From sequence record OR062945.1: a stretch of 64,000 nucleotides of DNA, one strand, 5' to 3'. This DNA is from Escherichia phage 308Ecol101PP. Every line of letters starts with the position of its first letter. Within the stretch, counting starts at the first letter, position 1. Position numbers and translations under genes: made by a program. The notes below the pieces were generated by a model. The model saw nothing but the letters and a program-made list of their open reading frames with translations. It was not told where the DNA came from and searched no databases. This document shows positions 6,698 to 32,623 of this stretch, piece by piece.

Positions 6698-6772
6698 GGC
6701 CCTGTAGCTCAATGGGAGAGCTGTCAGCTCATAACTGATAGGTAGCTGGATCGAAACCAGCCAGGGTCACCA
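6698..6772 (+). tRNA. tRNA-Met (anticodon CAT; could be Ile2 if lysidinylated)
   Basis: Hand-folded cloverleaf: acceptor GGCCCTG/CAGGGTC, D stem GCTC/GAGC, anticodon stem GTCAG/CTGAT with loop CTCATAA, T arm GCTGG-ATCGAAA-CCAGC, encoded CCA. Confidence 0.8.
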
Positions 6773-6775
6773 ATT

Positions 6776-6852
<77 letters not shown>

Positions 6853-7591: not shown

Positions 7592-8218
7592 ATGTATACT
7601 TTTAATGAATTTTTAGCCGAAACGGAAGTAATCACCGAAGCCGGTGTACGTATGACAAAAGAGAAATGGCAAGCTGCTTACGATGCTATTTCTGGTACAA
7701 AAACTAGTACAGAGTTTTTCAAAAACGTTCAAGCCATGTATGGTATCGACACTTCCAGCCAAAAAGAATATTACAGAGCTTCTAAAGCATTCAAAGATAT
7801 TGTTAGTGGCGGTGTTTCTGCTAAATCGGGTTCGCCTAAAGTAAAACCTGCTCCTACCGTTCCTAAACCTGCGACCCCTAAAGCAATAGCAAAACCTGAG
7901 CCTAAGCCGGAAGTAAAAGCAACTCCTAAAGCTCCTGCTCTTAAGTTTGATACTTCTAGCCTGGAAAAAAAATATAAACAACTATCTTCGCTTGTTCGTG
8001 ATATTGAATCCGATACATCTTCACTCGTTCGTGAATTCAACAGTCTTCGTAATGGCCAACATATCAACAACCTTGATACCCCAGACCTTTATCGTCTTTA
8101 TTTGACTATTGAAGGTTTGAAGTACACTCAACCACTTCATGATGAGATTAAAGAAAAACTTCGTCAGGCAGGTCGTTTGGCTGCTGACGCTGCTCAGTAT
8201 GCAAAAACTCGTAAGTAA
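7592..8218 (+). CDS. Capsid-targeted protein with Pro/Lys-rich linker
   Basis: Starts MYTFNEFLAETEV (CTS-like); PKVKPAPTVPKPATPKAIAKPEPKPEVKATPKAP low-complexity linker; TATAAATA late-promoter motif at 7549. Confidence 0.7.
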   Translation: MYTFNEFLAETEVITEAGVRMTKEKWQAAYDAISGTKTSTEFFKNVQAMYGIDTSSQKEYYRASKAFKDIVSGGVSAKSGSPKVKPAPTVPKPATPKAIAKPEPKPEVKATPKAPALKFDTSSLEKKYKQLSSLVRDIESDTSSLVREFNSLRNGQHINNLDTPDLYRLYLTIEGLKYTQPLHDEIKEKLRQAGRLAADAAQYAKTRK

Positions 8219-9830: not shown

Positions 9831-10427
9831 ATGCGAAACCAAAATAATGATATTGACTCAATGTTCGAAGAGTTCCGAGATAAGGTAAATCCACCTACGT
9901 CTTTAGTTGATTCATTACGATATGTTGCAACTGGACGTAAATGGTACTGGTCGTCTTCTTATGAGACAACTGAATATGCAAATAACCGAAAATCTTTATT
10001 AGCCCCAGGTATTATGATTCATGATATCGGAGCTATTGCTAAACTAGTTGCAGACCATGATATTAGATTCACTGATTTCATTGCTCCTACGTGGTCTGTT
10101 TGTTGTTTAAACACTGAATGGGACTACATCAGTGAACGTTCAGATGATTACGTAGGCTTTAGAGATAAGCTCTTAAGGTCTAACATGTTTTATATCGATA
10201 CAGAAGTTCTAGTCGATAATAAAAAATATTACTTTACGTTAATCGTCGATTCTGAAACTATGTATGAAGGCAAGCCTTTGCTTAAAAGAGTTGATGCTTT
10301 AAGTGCTATTGATGCGCTTTATGAAACTATGGTTGTTAGTCCTAATTTCACTAACAATTTAATCCTTGAGCAATTTATTATGGAATGTAGAGAATATGTC
10401 AAAGCCAACCCTATACATGCCAATTAA
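9831..10427 (+). CDS. Hypothetical protein; C-terminus carries QFIMECREY junction motif
   Basis: SD AGGAG then ATG 9831; ends overlapping next gene. Confidence 0.65.
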   Translation: MRNQNNDIDSMFEEFRDKVNPPTSLVDSLRYVATGRKWYWSSSYETTEYANNRKSLLAPGIMIHDIGAIAKLVADHDIRFTDFIAPTWSVCCLNTEWDYISERSDDYVGFRDKLLRSNMFYIDTEVLVDNKKYYFTLIVDSETMYEGKPLLKRVDALSAIDALYETMVVSPNFTNNLILEQFIMECREYVKANPIHAN

Positions 10428-26473: not shown

Positions 26474-26737
26474 ATGAAAAAATTGGTAATTGGTTTATTC
26501 GCAGTAATGATGGCATTCTCTGTTGGTGCTACCACGGGTGCAGCCGGCGGTAACCAGTCTTCTGGGCCTTCTAATGGTTCGGTAAATGCATCACATTCTC
26601 AGGGTATTGAGAACATTAAATCAAGCTATATTAATAGCACGGCCGGACAAGCAACTGAAGCATGGTCAAAGGGACGAGTAGTTACTCGCTCCGTATTCTG
26701 TGATATGCCTAATTATGTTGCTAAGTGCGATAAGTAA
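26474..26737 (+). CDS. Secreted small protein
   Basis: Signal peptide MKKLVIGLFAVMMAFSVGA; terminator at 26742. Confidence 0.6.
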   Translation: MKKLVIGLFAVMMAFSVGATTGAAGGNQSSGPSNGSVNASHSQGIENIKSSYINSTAGQATEAWSKGRVVTRSVFCDMPNYVAKCDK

Positions 26738-26762: not shown

Positions 26763-26789
26763 GGGGGTTAAAATATTTTTAAAAAAGTA

Positions 26790-26818
26790 GTGTACATGCT
26801 TTTAGGATATGTTATTAT
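26790..26818 (+). promoter_or_regulatory. Early promoter (GTGTAC, 17 nt spacer, TATTAT)
   Basis: Follows terminator 26742. Confidence 0.5.
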
Positions 26819-26856
26819 AGACCTATCAAAACGAAATGAGTAAATTGGAGAATAAA

Positions 26857-27837
26857 ATGTTCAACGTTCAAATCAAAAAAGGTATCTATCGTAATAACGA
26901 AATCTCTGGTTCTTATGTTGCCACAAAGACCTGGTTCCCAGCAAAGCTTAATCCTGAATGTTCCCACTTAGGTGATGGTAAAATTTTCGTTATGATTGAT
27001 GGTTCTGAACGCGGAGTATGGGTCTTCAAATCAGACATCGTAATGGAAGGAGTTGAGACGTCACCAGTTGCAGTTGTTGAAAGCACTGAAGATATGAAAA
27101 CTCGTATCAACAAACGCTTTAAAGTAATGAACATGATGACGAATGGCATTATCGATGGCAAAATTCGTTCACTCATTATTTCAGGTGCAGCTGGTATTGG
27201 TAAGACGTATTCTCTGGATAAAGCACTTAATAATGCTAATGATAACGGTTTCATCAAATACAAAAGCATTAATGGTAAAATCTCTGGTATTGGCCTTTAC
27301 GAACAACTTTGGCTCAACCGTGATGCGGACAGCGTTCTCTTAATCGACGACGTTGACGTATTCTCAGATATGGACATCTTGAACCTTCTTAAAGCAGCAT
27401 TAGATACTGGAGATAAACGCAAAGTTTGCTGGAGCACTGCGTCATCTTATCTCGATGATAAGGGTATTGATAAAGAATTTGAGTTTGAAGGTACTATCGT
27501 TTTCATTACAAACGTTGATATCGATAAAGAGTTAGAACGCGGTTCGAAACTTGCCCCACACCTTCAAGCTTTAGTATCTCGTTCAGTGTATCTCGACCTT
27601 GGAGTACACTCTAATGAAGAGATTATGGTTCGAGTTGAAGATGTAATATTATCTACTGACATGATGCAGAAACGTGGTCTGACAGATGCAGAAACGTATA
27701 AAGCATTGTCCTGGATGAAGGCTAACGTATCTCGTCTTCGCAATGTATCATTACGTACGGCTCTTTACGTAGCAGATTTTATTTCAACTGATAAAGATGG
27801 TTGGGAAGAAATCTCGGAAGTTACTTTACTGAAATAA
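26857..27837 (+). CDS. AAA+/P-loop ATPase
   Basis: Walker A ISGAAGIGKTY and Walker B VLLIDDVD; promoter 26790 (alternative start 26836). Confidence 0.75.
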   Translation: MFNVQIKKGIYRNNEISGSYVATKTWFPAKLNPECSHLGDGKIFVMIDGSERGVWVFKSDIVMEGVETSPVAVVESTEDMKTRINKRFKVMNMMTNGIIDGKIRSLIISGAAGIGKTYSLDKALNNANDNGFIKYKSINGKISGIGLYEQLWLNRDADSVLLIDDVDVFSDMDILNLLKAALDTGDKRKVCWSTASSYLDDKGIDKEFEFEGTIVFITNVDIDKELERGSKLAPHLQALVSRSVYLDLGVHSNEEIMVRVEDVILSTDMMQKRGLTDAETYKALSWMKANVSRLRNVSLRTALYVADFISTDKDGWEEISEVTLLK

Positions 27838-27975: not shown

Positions 27976-28263
27976 ATGGATTTTATGCAAAAAATTAAAG
28001 CCGCAGTAGAACTCTATGCTCATCGTATGGTTAGTTCTACAATGCAATATAGCGAGGAGGTTCGCCAGGACTCTTCCTTGAAAGGAAAAACTAAAGCCTT
28101 AATTACCTTAGATCGTTTGCAAAAGAATGCCATAGAGATGCTCCAGTACGACAAGGCTGTATATAAGAAAGAACAGGAAGAGAAACTTAAATCTGAAAAA
28201 TTACAGAAAATTCCGAAATCGGTTTGGTTCAGTGGAAAAAATACCGAAAAAAGTTTCTTTTAG
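27976..28263 (+). CDS. Hypothetical protein
   Basis: SD AAGAGGA; 95 aa. Confidence 0.55.
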   Translation: MDFMQKIKAAVELYAHRMVSSTMQYSEEVRQDSSLKGKTKALITLDRLQKNAIEMLQYDKAVYKKEQEEKLKSEKLQKIPKSVWFSGKNTEKSFF

Positions 28264-28265
28264 TT

Positions 28266-28300
28266 GTTTACAAGGTCTATAGTTATGTTATTATAGACCT
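28266..28300 (+). promoter_or_regulatory. Early promoter stem-loop cassette
   Basis: GTTTAC; IR AGGTCTATA / TATAGACCT. Confidence 0.6.
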
Positions 28301-28321
28301 ATCAACTACTGGAGGTAAAAC

Positions 28322-28849: not shown

Positions 28850-28911
28850 ACGCTTTACCCAAGGACGGGTTATAATGGTTTTGAGTTCCAATTCAATCTG
28901 AGGAAATAGAT

Positions 28912-29907
28912 ATGAGCATTACATCTGATGCGGTAAAACATGAAATTAACGGTTTATGTGCTTCACAGATTAAAGTGTGGTTTAAAGACCATAATGATCG
29001 CAGAGCACTTAATTATGAGCAAATTGCTATCCAAGTTCATCAATTACTGACTAGTAAATTTGATTTTCATATGCCGTCTGAAATTTATACTAATCTACCG
29101 CGAGCGCTTATTAAAGCGTGTAAAGGTTACGGAAAATCAATGGCTGATGGAATCTTCAGCGCGCTGAATAAACTTAACGTTCTGTCGATGATTAACTCTA
29201 ACAACATTCTGCGTAATCTAGGACGTACTGATTTGTTCGGTCGTGAACAGTGTAAAATGCCTTTGAAATGGATTGTTGCTCATCTTAACGAGAACCAAAC
29301 ACGTTTTATGGCCGTATCAGCACGCTTACAAATGGGCCTAGATCGTCAGATGAACTTTAAAACTCATCCACGGTATTCAGGTTCAACAGACTTTTATAAA
29401 TGTGAGCTTCAAAAGGTTGCAGGTAAAACTGTCTTAGTAGTTCGTGTAACGTTTGAAGGACGACGTCAAGGATATTTTGACCTAATCGGCTCTGGTCTTA
29501 AACATTGTGGATTTATTGACGAAGTTGATATTAAGCGAGACGGCATTGGATACCGTATTGGATATGTTTGTACTCTTAAAGAAGAGATTTCAGGACCAGC
29601 ACCAGGACTAAAAGACGTTAGATATAAAGACGAGCTTGTTGAAGAAATAAAAGAAGTTGAATATGATATCAACCAAGAAGATGCTCTTAAAGACCTTATT
29701 GATGAACTAAACCAAGACATTATTCCGGTTCAGAAATTTGAATCAAAACATGCTGAGCAAATCAAATACTTTGAAGCTTTGATTAACGAACTTAATGTAA
29801 CTATTCAACAGACTGATGATGAAATCTCACGATTAGCAGGCTTAAATGGTAAAAATAAAACGGAACGAGCTAATCTTATTCAAGTAGTAAAACTTCTTAA
29901 GGAATGA
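28912..29907 (+). CDS. Hypothetical protein with C-terminal coiled coil (331 aa)
   Basis: SD GAGGAAA; first of three similarly sized genes. Confidence 0.7.
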   Translation: MSITSDAVKHEINGLCASQIKVWFKDHNDRRALNYEQIAIQVHQLLTSKFDFHMPSEIYTNLPRALIKACKGYGKSMADGIFSALNKLNVLSMINSNNILRNLGRTDLFGREQCKMPLKWIVAHLNENQTRFMAVSARLQMGLDRQMNFKTHPRYSGSTDFYKCELQKVAGKTVLVVRVTFEGRRQGYFDLIGSGLKHCGFIDEVDIKRDGIGYRIGYVCTLKEEISGPAPGLKDVRYKDELVEEIKEVEYDINQEDALKDLIDELNQDIIPVQKFESKHAEQIKYFEALINELNVTIQQTDDEISRLAGLNGKNKTERANLIQVVKLLKE

Positions 29908-29936
29908 TGTACAACCAGGGATGGTTGGAGTATAAT
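29908..29936 (+). promoter_or_regulatory. Early promoter (TGTACA, 17 nt spacer with CAACCA/TGGTTG hairpin, TATAAT)
   Basis: Near-identical to promoter at 30903. Confidence 0.55.
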
Positions 29937-29962
29937 AAATTTTTCAACATGAGGAATATAAA

Positions 29963-30898
29963 ATGGCTTCTATTACACGTAGAGAACTTATCAAAGAATT
30001 TACCTCGAACGCATATACCCCAGGTCCTAATCCTATCCGTATGCCTGTAAAGACTCCTGAAGAGATTGAGGAAATCTGTTCATATTATGGGATTACTTCT
30101 CGTAAGTTTACTCAATTTGAATGCGTTACTAACACACCAGTTAAAGAGTTCATTAAAAATGGCGAGTTCAGTCGTTTATTAGCCAAACAGAAACTTCGTA
30201 ATTTTTGTATTGGCGGTGAAGGACAATATTTTGCTAAACAGTTCAGAAATAACCTTAACAATCTGATGGCCATTGCTTCTCGTATTCGTCCTCAAGCAAT
30301 TAACATGAAACATTTGAAATATACTTACGATAAGTTAGAAATCATGGTTATCAGTGAGAACGAGTTCACTCTTACGTATAAACCTAAGAATGATAACGTT
30401 GCTCGTGTATTCCACCAAGCGTTGGAAGTGTTAGGTGATAATATTTACCAGATTAAAGCAATTTATTCTCGTGAGCTTAATATTATCAACCCTATCAAGA
30501 ATAAGGGCCATATCGCTATCCAGGCTCGTGTATCTATTGGTAAAAAGGTTCCTGCGCCATGGTGGCACAAAGACTCTGAATACTATCAAAATCTTAAAAA
30601 GGAAAATGCAACGTTCGAAGCGTCAATTACTGCAACCCCAATTGGCAACGCTGAAGTTCTAGGTGCATATTCTACTGCTCCATCTATATACACTTCACCG
30701 TCGACTAAACTGGAAATCTCTAACGGTCTTCTTCCTGCCGAAGATTACTATTATAATCAAATCAAAGCCACTGTGGACCAACTGTCTGTTGAACTTGACA
30801 AAGCACAAGCTAAGCTTCGTGATGCTCAACAAGTAGTTACCAAGCTCCAGTTGCAGTACTCTAAACTTTTTAACGCAATGAATGCATTAAAATCATAA
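29963..30898 (+). CDS. Hypothetical protein with C-terminal coiled coil (311 aa)
   Basis: Promoter 29908; SD GAGGAA. Confidence 0.7.
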   Translation: MASITRRELIKEFTSNAYTPGPNPIRMPVKTPEEIEEICSYYGITSRKFTQFECVTNTPVKEFIKNGEFSRLLAKQKLRNFCIGGEGQYFAKQFRNNLNNLMAIASRIRPQAINMKHLKYTYDKLEIMVISENEFTLTYKPKNDNVARVFHQALEVLGDNIYQIKAIYSRELNIINPIKNKGHIAIQARVSIGKKVPAPWWHKDSEYYQNLKKENATFEASITATPIGNAEVLGAYSTAPSIYTSPSTKLEISNGLLPAEDYYYNQIKATVDQLSVELDKAQAKLRDAQQVVTKLQLQYSKLFNAMNALKS

Positions 30899-30902
30899 AT
30901 CA

Positions 30903-30932
30903 GTTTACAACCAAGGATGGTTGGAGTATAAT
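30903..30932 (+). promoter_or_regulatory. Early promoter (GTTTAC, spacer hairpin, TATAAT)
   Basis: Near-identical to promoter at 29908. Confidence 0.55.
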
Positions 30933-30960
30933 CTTTCTATCTTAACGAGAGGAAAATATT

Positions 30961-31905
30961 ATGACACGTTCACATTACATTGATTATTTTGCAGGTCTTA
31001 TCGCTAACGTTCATGCCCAACGTGCTTCTGGTTCATTAGGATTTGATGTTCCACACCGAGTTGTAGTAAGTGGTATTCTTCGCGATTTTGGTACATACAC
31101 AGGCCAAGAAAATCATATCTGTAAAGATACTCAGAATGCATATTCTCATTCATTAGGGACACTGCTTCAATGGTTCAAACGTTCTCGTTTATTATCTTCT
31201 ACTGTAGCTCGCGATAACATTAAAAACTTTATGAAGCCGAGCTTTATTAAATCTGTGACATCTAAAACCGATTTGGTTGAATTCACTATTGTTAATGATG
31301 TTAAAAAGACTCATTTGGCTGATTGGTTATCTACCATTCCTGAAACTAAATTTGCTGATAAATTTGCTTGTGAATTCAATAACCAAGTGAATATGCTTTT
31401 TAAACATTCACGTAAATTATTCACAGGTGGCGATGATCGTACAAATACAGTTCATGCTAAAGATTGGGTTACTGCAGTGTTCAAACCAACAGGTAATGGT
31501 ACCGCATCATTATCAATTGATATCCAGGTTCCTTATTACTACTCACGTAATCTCGGTACCATGAAAGCCGAAGAAATTAATAAGCACAACAAAACCATTC
31601 GTTCGCTGTCTTATAAACTTCGCATGATGTTAAGAATCATGGACGTGGTAGAAATGTATGATGAAACCGAAGATAATGGTTCAATGTTATACAGTTCTCG
31701 CATTCAAATTAAGTTGAAGAACCCTAACGAGTATAAGCCTATTAAAGAGCCTAAAGCAGAAAAAGTTGATAACTTAAGAGAAGAACGCGAATATCTCAAA
31801 TCTCGCCTGAAAGAAGTCGAAGCCCAGATTGCAGAACAAACTAAATCATTAAAAGCTCTGAATGCAAAAGCTGATGGTTTACGAAATGCCATTGAGGTTT
31901 TATAA
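30961..31905 (+). CDS. Hypothetical protein with C-terminal coiled coil (314 aa)
   Basis: Promoter 30903; SD GAGAGGAAA. Confidence 0.7.
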   Translation: MTRSHYIDYFAGLIANVHAQRASGSLGFDVPHRVVVSGILRDFGTYTGQENHICKDTQNAYSHSLGTLLQWFKRSRLLSSTVARDNIKNFMKPSFIKSVTSKTDLVEFTIVNDVKKTHLADWLSTIPETKFADKFACEFNNQVNMLFKHSRKLFTGGDDRTNTVHAKDWVTAVFKPTGNGTASLSIDIQVPYYYSRNLGTMKAEEINKHNKTIRSLSYKLRMMLRIMDVVEMYDETEDNGSMLYSSRIQIKLKNPNEYKPIKEPKAEKVDNLREEREYLKSRLKEVEAQIAEQTKSLKALNAKADGLRNAIEVL

Positions 31906-32210
31906 TGAAACTACGTCTTTTAGAGGATATTGATATGAGCACTAATCACGGCTTGGTTAAGTTTATTGACGATAGTTCAAAGATTGAATTTGTTCAGCGA
32001 GATAAAATCCACGGTGAAGAAGAGTTCGTTCCTCCGGCATGGAACGAAATAATGAAAATGGTTGAACGACGTGAAAATGCTGCCAAATCGGCAGCAAAAC
32101 ATCCGTGCCCGGAATGTGGAACTATCCAAGTCCAACTGGTTAACTGGACCACTAATAACTTGAAATTGAAATGCCGTAAATGCTTCCACAAATTTGAGAG
32201 AACATTATAA
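31905..32210 (+). CDS. Small Zn-ribbon-like protein
   Basis: CPECG...CRKC pair of CxxC motifs; TAATG overlap. Confidence 0.55.
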   Translation: MKLRLLEDIDMSTNHGLVKFIDDSSKIEFVQRDKIHGEEEFVPPAWNEIMKMVERRENAAKSAAKHPCPECGTIQVQLVNWTTNNLKLKCRKCFHKFERTL

Positions 32211-32623
32211 TGAGATATAGCCTTCGTTGTTTTATCGCAGCTTTAGTTTTTGCTATTATTCCATTCATTTGGAACAGCCAGAATACTTACATGGAAACTA
32301 AAGTAATTCCTGTGGAGGTAGTGGAATTAATCTCAGGCCAATCTACAGGAAAATATTCTAAATTAGAATTTATTGCAGTCTATAAAGATGAGCAAGGACG
32401 AGTTTTTGACAGGCGTGTATCGCCATCGTTTTATACGCTTCTGAATAAAGGTGATACGATAGCTATAGAAATTCGTGAGATGGATATCAAACAAACTACT
32501 AAAGATAACTTGATTTGGTTCTTTGGTACAGTGTTGTTGGTTTCTATCTGTATCACAGGTTTTATTACATGTATTGTATTTGGCATTGCATATTTAATCG
32601 ATGAAAGGAAAAATAATGTTTAA
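32210..32623 (+). CDS. Membrane protein
   Basis: N- and C-terminal hydrophobic segments. Confidence 0.6.
   Translation: MRYSLRCFIAALVFAIIPFIWNSQNTYMETKVIPVEVVELISGQSTGKYSKLEFIAVYKDEQGRVFDRRVSPSFYTLLNKGDTIAIEIREMDIKQTTKDNLIWFFGTVLLVSICITGFITCIVFGIAYLIDERKNNV

Follow-up and report, generated by a model that had tools for sequence, protein, structure and literature searches.

Three open reading frames in the nrdC region of a Mosigvirus genome

This analysis concerns three consecutive open reading frames (ORFs), designated ORF1, ORF2 and ORF3, in a stretch of 64,000 nucleotides from Escherichia phage 308Ecol101PP (OR062945.1), which is called the window below and whose numbering is used unless another record is named. 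Judged from their sequences, all three are bona fide early genes and are the counterparts of the phage T4 genes nrdC.6, nrdC.5 and nrdC.3, respectively:

28912..29907, + strand, ORF1: 331 amino acids; subfamily C6; PHROG 2257; NrdC.6 orthologue
29963..30898, + strand, ORF2: 311 amino acids; subfamily C5; PHROG 2351; Pfam DUF7235 (PF23882)
30961..31905, + strand, ORF3: 314 amino acids; subfamily C3; PHROG 1435; orthologue of T4 NrdC.3 and paralogue of T4 NrdC.4

An earlier note on this DNA had described three tandem proteins of one size class at these positions, and a six-frame ORF list was identical to that description (331, 311 and 314 amino acids, all on the + strand). A GAGGA or GGAA Shine-Dalgarno sequence precedes each of the three ATGs. 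The 3-kb array stretch shares 96-99% nucleotide identity with numerous Mosigvirus phages (JS09/RB69 type) of Escherichia and Shigella, and the same three coding sequences are annotated in near-identical Mosigvirus genomes. The sequence thus places the phage among the RB69/JS09-type T4-like coliphages of the genus Mosigvirus.

The window and the Mosigvirus genomes have the gene order tk-rI-...-nrdC.11-.10-.9-.8-[three ORFs]-nrdC.2-.7-nrdC-pin-49-nrdD in common. The upstream neighbours encode the nucleotidyltransferase NrdC.11, the P-loop protein NrdC.10, NrdC.9 and NrdC.8, and the downstream neighbours encode NrdC.2, which follows ORF3 directly at position 31905, NrdC.7, NrdC, Pin, endonuclease VII and NrdD; these surrounding genes identify the locus as the T4 nrdC-mobD accessory region. 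Base composition is even across the window, giving no sign of a foreign insert.

Homologues of the three ORFs

Residues 15-310 of ORF2 matched positions 1-307 of the DUF7235 (PF23882) profile at 383 bits (E = 1.5e-114), the gathering score of this family being 30 bits, and the same model gave 420 bits (420.6) for T4 NrdC.5 and 402 bits for the Dhakavirus counterpart. The Pfam scan returned zero DUF7235 matches for ORF1 and ORF3. ORF2 resembles T4 NrdC.5 in its full-length DUF7235 domain, array position, length class and terminal coiled coil ending in ...KL.NA.NAL(K/N), but the two proteins are just 24% identical (BLASTP, E = 1.5e-7), and the Mosigvirus form makes up a separate clade of 132 phage records with mutual identity of at least 80%.

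ORF3 was assigned to the NrdC.3 family by full-length similarity and by its location upstream of nrdC.2. It was 57% identical to T4 NrdC.3 over 314 amino acids (BLASTP, E = 2.5e-122) and 78% identical to RB6-type NrdC.3, and the precomputed Pfam family PF26897 was present on 34 of the 34 ORF3 homologues found. T4 NrdC.4, to which the BLASTP match was weak (E = 6e-5), is a clear paralogue by the profile comparison given below; unlike in T4, the NrdC.4 copy is absent from the window.

ORF1 was assigned to the NrdC.6 family by full-length similarity and by its position after nrdC.8. BLASTP identities were 29% to T4 NrdC.6 (E = 3e-18) and 32% to the full-length RB6 NrdC.6 (E = 9e-32), and the 295-amino-acid NrdC.6 proteins of RB6, a48, ACG-C40 and IsaacDaniel were 32-34% identical to ORF1 (E of about 1e-32); the alignments with RB6, a48 and IsaacDaniel run from residue 1 or 27 to residue 330 (E = 1e-32 to 2e-33). 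ORF1 also matched PHROG 2257 at 425 bits, and its close homologues carry the precomputed Pfam family PF26899. Among the uncharacterised tequatrovirus and Dhakavirus NrdC.6 proteins, those of RB6, a48 and ACG-C40 align with ORF1 over the full length, and the RB6 tail is 60% identical to that of ORF1. ORF1 differs by an acidic insertion of approximately 36 amino acids before the tail, and the reference T4 NrdC.6 is frameshifted and without a tail.

At the 3' end of nrdC.6 in the reference T4 genome (NC_000866, approximately 9997-10140, minus strand), a single-base deletion was observed relative to RB6 (GCTGAATATT to GCTG-ATATT), which shifts the frame and cuts the protein to 275 amino acids. The sequence for the lost coiled-coil tail (ISIQQYDDEIFRLSGLSSKAKSEREKLIKIVDLLKS) persists in a different frame as far as the start of nrdC.5, so that the annotated 70-nucleotide "intergenic gap" of T4 is the remainder of nrdC.6.

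In many GenBank records, including that of pEK20, the entire nrdC.1-nrdC.11 block, with the three ORFs, is labelled "thioredoxin", a label that evidently spread from the nrdC gene-name prefix. The three ORFs themselves gave zero thioredoxin-family matches in Pfam or NCBIfam and show no thioredoxin signature.

Profile comparisons among the three families

The earlier note regarded the N-terminal heads of the three proteins as not obviously similar, which holds at the level of BLASTP, since pairwise comparisons among ORF1, ORF2 and ORF3 gave nothing significant (best E = 0.24-2.7). Comparison of profiles with hhalign linked the ORF2 family to the ORF3/NrdC.4 family over the full length (probability 90.5%, E = 1.3e-6), and locally built subfamily profiles gave 98.6% (E = 5.6e-15) for C3 with C4, the NrdC.4 subfamily, and 92.5% (E = 6.5e-8) for C5 with C4.

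A shallow ORF1 profile showed no significant match to the other two families (hhalign E = 0.04-0.31), and C6 still gave E = 0.018-0.12 with the local four-subfamily profiles. Significance for ORF1 was reached solely after the addition of diverse C6 members and single-copy outgroup proteins. With diverse members added, C6 aligned collinearly with the combined C3, C4 and C5 profile (68%, E = 4.7e-5), and with a broader profile that included the single-copy proteins of Serratia phage X20, Klebsiella phage UTI-K4 and Enterobacter phage id4496 it aligned over two motif helices (94.6%, E = 6.5e-8). As single sequences, these three outgroup proteins matched the subfamily profiles weakly (hhalign E = 2e-4 to 0.4).

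The MAFFT alignment of C3, C4 and C5 contained a common N-terminus, M(K)TR..YI..F, the motifs FK.SRLLS...L.NF and F..F(R/N).N.N.L.K.(A/S)R(L/I)..GD.R, an MDVVE helix, a P..KP linker and a terminal helix ending in L.NA...L(K/N). Alignments that mixed families without bridging NrdC.4 sequences misaligned the N-terminal motif and were kept out of modelling.

The profile comparisons and the structure models described below indicate that ORF1, ORF2 and ORF3 are old, strongly diverged tandem paralogues within one superfamily of T4-like-phage proteins. The suggestion of the earlier note that they form one family was thus borne out by comparison of the ORF families, and the outcome that would have spoken against it, namely three unrelated known families, was not found. 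The four "unrelated" hypothetical proteins NrdC.3 to NrdC.6 of T4 constitute one paralogous family, which apparently takes in their relatives from other T4-like phages as well. None of the genes is new, all being catalogued already (T4 nrdC.x, Pfam DUFs); what is new is their recognition as one superfamily that includes the anti-Dsr1 protein, as discussed below.

Predicted structures

AlphaFold2 models were obtained for ORF1 (predicted local distance difference test, pLDDT, 65; predicted template modelling score 0.52) and for ORF3 (pLDDT 56 and 0.39, respectively, with 29 close homologues in the alignment). The two models show an identical order of secondary-structure elements, consisting of five N-terminal helices, two further helices, a beta-hairpin, a helix and another beta-hairpin, after which come a linker of low confidence and a long terminal helix; the template modelling scores were 0.2-0.45, at pLDDT 56-65. 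The first helix comprises residues 3-23 in both, and the first beta-hairpin has two strands in the ORF1 model and three in the ORF3 model.

The architecture predicted to be common to the superfamily comprises 1) five N-terminal helices; 2) two helices with the motifs (F)K.SRLLS...L.NF and N..N.L....(A/S)R(L/I)..GD; 3) a modelled unit of beta-hairpin, helix and beta-hairpin; 4) a poorly ordered Pro-rich linker; and 5) a heptad-patterned C-terminal helix of 40-50 residues.

A Foldseek search of BFVD with the ORF1 model recovered its own family and gave full-length matches (E = 2.6e-6 to 4e-3) to uncharacterised T4-like phage proteins of 300-335 amino acids from Enterobacter (IME523), Klebsiella (Mineola), Acinetobacter (fHyAci03, Acj9, 133, Acj61), Yersinia and Serratia phages. 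The ORF1 model also matched the model of an NrdC.3-family protein that ranked first for the ORF3 model (E = 1.8e-3, probability 0.96). The fold had earlier been called unrecognised, and the moderate-quality models of ORF1 and ORF3 indeed matched no solved structure. Searches of Pfam, NCBIfam and PDB sequences with the three ORFs returned DUF7235 for ORF2 alone; the remaining matches, among them Mer2, haemagglutinin HA2 and troponin T, were dismissed as weak coiled-coil noise.

C-terminal coiled-coil tails

The best 28-residue heptad window, determined with a home-made score rather than with COILS or MARCOIL, was C-terminal in all three ORFs and exceeded the 95th percentile of shuffle maxima. 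Hydrophobic residues at a/d positions over at least four heptads were found in the tails, with helices modelled for ORF1 and ORF3, which agrees with the earlier description of a heptad-rich helix at the end of each protein. The tails are:

29752..29901, + strand, ORF1 C-terminal helical tail: amino acids 281-330; heptads interrupted at GLNGK (amino acids 309-312)
30737..30895, + strand, ORF2 C-terminal coiled-coil tail: amino acids 259-311; all windows starting at amino acids 259-284 above the shuffle threshold
31777..31899, + strand, ORF3 C-terminal coiled-coil helix: amino acids 273-313; a single helix in the AlphaFold2 model

Within the last 42 amino acids, hydrophobic residues occupied 11 of the 12 a/d positions in ORF2, 10 of 12 in ORF3 and 8 of 12 in ORF1. 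The pLDDT of the ORF3 model climbs from about 50 to 80 along the terminal helix. In the ORF1 model the tail forms two helices (281-307 and 313-330) with a break at GLNGK, and this break together with the lower a/d count makes the ORF1 coil the weaker, interrupted one.

Heads have diverged faster than tails in each subfamily, the identities of head versus tail (the last 45-50 residues) being 27 versus 60% in C6, 55 versus 71% in C3, 42 versus 64% in C4 and 23 versus 38% in C5. Between subfamilies, the tails of the window proteins were not closer to each other than heptad-preserving shuffles in end-anchored BLOSUM62 comparisons: the fraction of shuffles that reached the observed score was 0.03 for ORF1-ORF2, 0.88 for ORF1-ORF3 and 0.14 for ORF2-ORF3, and tail pairs within subfamilies gave z values of 3.6-8.5. 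The terminal coiled coil is therefore shared as an architectural element that is subfamily-specific in sequence, and not as one targeting peptide. A shared C-terminal sequence module, as the earlier note had envisaged, was not supported by these comparisons. Its picture of variable heads on a shared module stood in so far as the heads do diverge faster, and failed in so far as the heads are homologous over their length or a core rather than being unrelated domains.

Promoters and expression signals

nrdC.5 has been termed an early gene (PMC9391042), and promoter-like sites were identified upstream of the window genes as follows:

28854..28876, + strand, degenerate promoter-like site before ORF1: TTTACC, 11-nucleotide spacer, TATAAT; read directly, absent from the promoter scan
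29908..29936, + strand, early-type promoter-like site before ORF2: TGTACA-17-TATAAT, 10/12; spacer palindrome CAACCA-GGGA-TGGTTG
30904..30932, + strand, early-type promoter-like site before ORF3: TTTACA-17-TATAAT, 11/12; spacer palindrome CAACCA-AGGA-TGGTTG

The sites before ORF2 and ORF3 are identical at 26 of 27 nucleotides and have no further occurrence in the window. The arrangement in which each gene has its own promoter, proposed earlier, thus applies to ORF2 and ORF3, which have strong sites, but is doubtful for ORF1, the spacer of which has a non-canonical length of 11 nucleotides. ORF1 may instead be transcribed from the promoter that precedes nrdC.8, at about position 28267.

A stem of 6 base pairs with an A/GGGA loop, followed by GAG-TATAAT, lies inside the promoter spacers before array members (window 29912-29927 and 30908-30923), and the same spacer hairpin occurs at L005:6847, L009:7752, L011:11929 and, in T4 (L001), at 8966-8949 and 7893-7908, where the copies were flagged as terminator-like. 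The stem varies between lineages by paired changes (CAACCA/TGGTTG, CATCCA/TGGATG, GCCACA/TGTGGT and GAGCCA/TGGCTC). This element could be a terminator or RNA-stability hairpin that overlaps a promoter, with an adjacent GGAG (RegB-type) site.

Distribution and copy number

In a tblastn search of a phage collection, 741 records contained relatives of ORF1, 653 contained relatives of ORF3 and 132 contained the Mosigvirus form of ORF2. An exhaustive hmmsearch of 1.84 billion cluster representatives with a profile of all three families yielded 11 proteins, ten of which were T-even-type relatives or fragments and one a spurious repeat protein, and the 14 loci found in an IMG/VR scan added no new diversity. 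By sequence, the family is restricted to enterobacterial T4-like phages, with structure-level relatives in other Straboviridae.

The array contains four copies in T4 and RB6 (NrdC.6,.5,.4 and.3), three in the window and in Dhakaviruses, and two in ESCO47; T4-like genera outside the T-even type apparently have one copy. Two relatives carry natural deletion products: ACG-C40 keeps NrdC.6 together with a 71-amino-acid N-terminal fragment of NrdC.5 followed by the last approximately 70 codons of NrdC.3 (L007 5805-6213), and in Pinarejo (L006 5001-5135) the last 45 codons of NrdC.6 are the sole remnant. Recombination and deletion inside the array appear to be frequent.

Link with Dsr1 and proposed function

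A phenotype has been reported for T4 NrdC.5. An evolved T4 clone with deletions, nrdC.5 among them, no longer plated on ECOR17, and its plating was restored by deletion of dsr1 in this host (Srikant, Guegler and Laub, eLife 2022, PMC9391042). In the same study, plasmid-borne dsr1 shielded MG1655 against the T4 deletion clone, nrdC.5 supplied in trans allowed this clone to plate on MG1655 with dsr1, and the clone, despite its loss of nrdC.5, was viable on MG1655 (PMC9391042). Dsr1 is a SIR2-domain defence protein of E. coli, which is called poorly characterised in a further paper (PMC13464706). The literature search on DUF7235 or an "anti-Dsr1" protein found nothing beyond PMC9391042, and a paper on DRT1 listed nrdC.8 as down-regulated and contained nothing else relevant. 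DSAD1 of an SPbeta-type phage inhibits DSR2 by binding to it (PMC10973363, PMC10981675, PMC11087589). The likeness is a functional analogy only, in that a phage disarms a defence-associated sirtuin with a small protein; DSAD1 comes from another phage group and has DSR2 rather than Dsr1 as its target, and membership is not claimed.

The effector role that the earlier note had proposed is plausible by analogy, since T4 NrdC.5, which belongs to the Pfam family of ORF2, overcomes Dsr1. Overall, we lean towards reading the T4-like tandem paralogues as accessory early counter-defence proteins, because they are early, dispensable and variable in copy number and have fast-evolving heads. They would be accessory proteins of the host-range type, not essential and produced immediately after infection, and each, to judge from T4 NrdC.5, would most likely bind and neutralise a host immune protein. 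The candidate anti-Dsr1 protein of this phage is ORF2, which belongs to DUF7235 over its full length; the targets of ORF1 and ORF3 would be other defence proteins or variants. More speculatively, the fast-evolving head would carry target specificity, and the coiled-coil tail, which evolves slowly and is specific to each subfamily, would bring about homo-oligomerisation, which would provide avidity against oligomeric defence proteins and would avoid mixed oligomers of paralogues.

A more far-reaching version can be put forward only tentatively: NrdC.3 to NrdC.6 and the apparently single-copy relatives of Karam-, Jiaoda-, Winkler- and Acinetobacter-type phages might form one dedicated, rapidly diversifying counter-defence family with a fold new to solved structures, in which each paralogue would inhibit a different immune sensor or effector (Dsr1 in the case of NrdC.5) and subfamily-specific coils would keep homo-oligomers separate, matching oligomeric defence proteins.

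Several points weigh against the counter-defence reading and the relationship on which it builds. The alignment of ORF1 with the other families is not full length, consisting of a core of 85-119 columns (about residues 75-196) together with the architecture, and the models are mediocre (pLDDT 56 and 65), with a low-confidence beta-containing middle. Known domains or conserved catalytic-looking residues were not found in the ORFs, so that direct binding is assumed by analogy only, and oligomerisation driven by the tails is suggested by the heptads alone, with the tail of ORF1 being interrupted. The identity between ORF2 and T4 NrdC.5 is just 24% (23% in the head), and target specificity may therefore differ. 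A single trans-complementation experiment, without a mechanism, underlies the anti-Dsr1 result (PMC9391042), and the literature search found nothing on the function of NrdC.3, NrdC.4 or NrdC.6.

It seems unlikely, though it deserves consideration, that the three proteins act in early host takeover or housekeeping as modulators of nucleotide metabolism, transcription or replication proteins rather than in immunity, with an indirect effect of NrdC.5 on Dsr1. Such a role would suit ORFs that sit between nrdC, nrdD and tk and the conserved genes for the NrdC.10 ATPase and the NrdC.11 nucleotidyltransferase; many T4-like genera seem to retain one homologue or more at the locus, which suggests a role broader than one strain-specific defence, and the anti-Dsr1 effect has no known mechanism. 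It is less easily reconciled with the varying copy number, natural deletions and frameshift, or with a T4 gene that is dispensable on laboratory E. coli and yet causes a Dsr1-specific plating defect when lost, and no enzyme or nucleic-acid-binding domain was detected in the ORFs.

An arrangement of three different, unrelated heads each fused to one common oligomerisation or targeting module, a model that goes back to the earlier note, is largely refuted and now very improbable. While it would account for the empty pairwise BLASTP comparisons, the heptad-rich helix that terminates all three proteins and the three separate Pfam/PHROG families, the heads are linked by profile-profile comparison, the ORF1 and ORF3 models agree in secondary-structure order, Foldseek matches cross subfamilies, and the tail sequences are no closer than heptad-preserving shuffles.

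Least credible of all is that the array consists mostly of duplicated DNA in decay within a hyperplastic region, its proteins having little or no present function in this phage, as the remnants, deletions and frameshift in relatives and the narrow set of phages carrying the family might suggest, given that the three ORFs are intact with ribosome-binding sites (and, for ORF2 and ORF3, strong promoter-like sites), that full-length genes are conserved in hundreds of genomes (the 741, 132 and 653 records for ORF1, ORF2 and ORF3), that stronger constraint is visible on tails than on heads, and that one family member, T4 NrdC.5, has a demonstrated phenotype.

Under the counter-defence reading, three anonymous ORFs become concrete candidates for counter-defence screens, and the diverged paralogue series offers natural material for mapping the determinants of specificity against Dsr1-type immunity.

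Neighbouring genes and other features

The NrdC.7 homologue, a predicted membrane protein (window 32210-32623), lies between nrdC.2 and nrdC in the window and between nrdC.8 and nrdC.6 in T4, which shows that gene order in the array region was rearranged between genera. The NrdC.10 homologue (window 26836-27837) is a P-loop/AAA-like protein with weak matches to clamp-loader PHROGs. It was found in 1303 phage records, including Vibrio, Aeromonas and Acinetobacter T4-like phages and some jumbo phages, and is much wider spread than the adjoining array. Between the NrdC.11 and NrdC.10 homologues, an ORF of 87 amino acids (window 26474-26737) has a signal-peptide-like N-terminal segment and lacks a counterpart among the T4 nrdC-region proteins with which it was compared (nrdC to nrdC.11, 49.2 and 49.3). 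A second promoter-containing direct-repeat pair (window 26786-26829 and 28262-28305; 44 nucleotides, 80% identical) is located upstream of the NrdC.10 and NrdC.8 homologues.

In phages of the Winkler, Jiaoda and Karam types, a well conserved protein (...DDRPHAPFDGYLWENELGEVEAYHAGSYLPY...) precedes the one superfamily member:

L012:11226-11999, L013:11296-12084 and L014:11835-12608, protein of 257-262 amino acids: absent from the window and from T4

Adjacent genes for tRNA-Met (CAT) and tRNA-Arg (TCT) are located at window positions 6698-6852.

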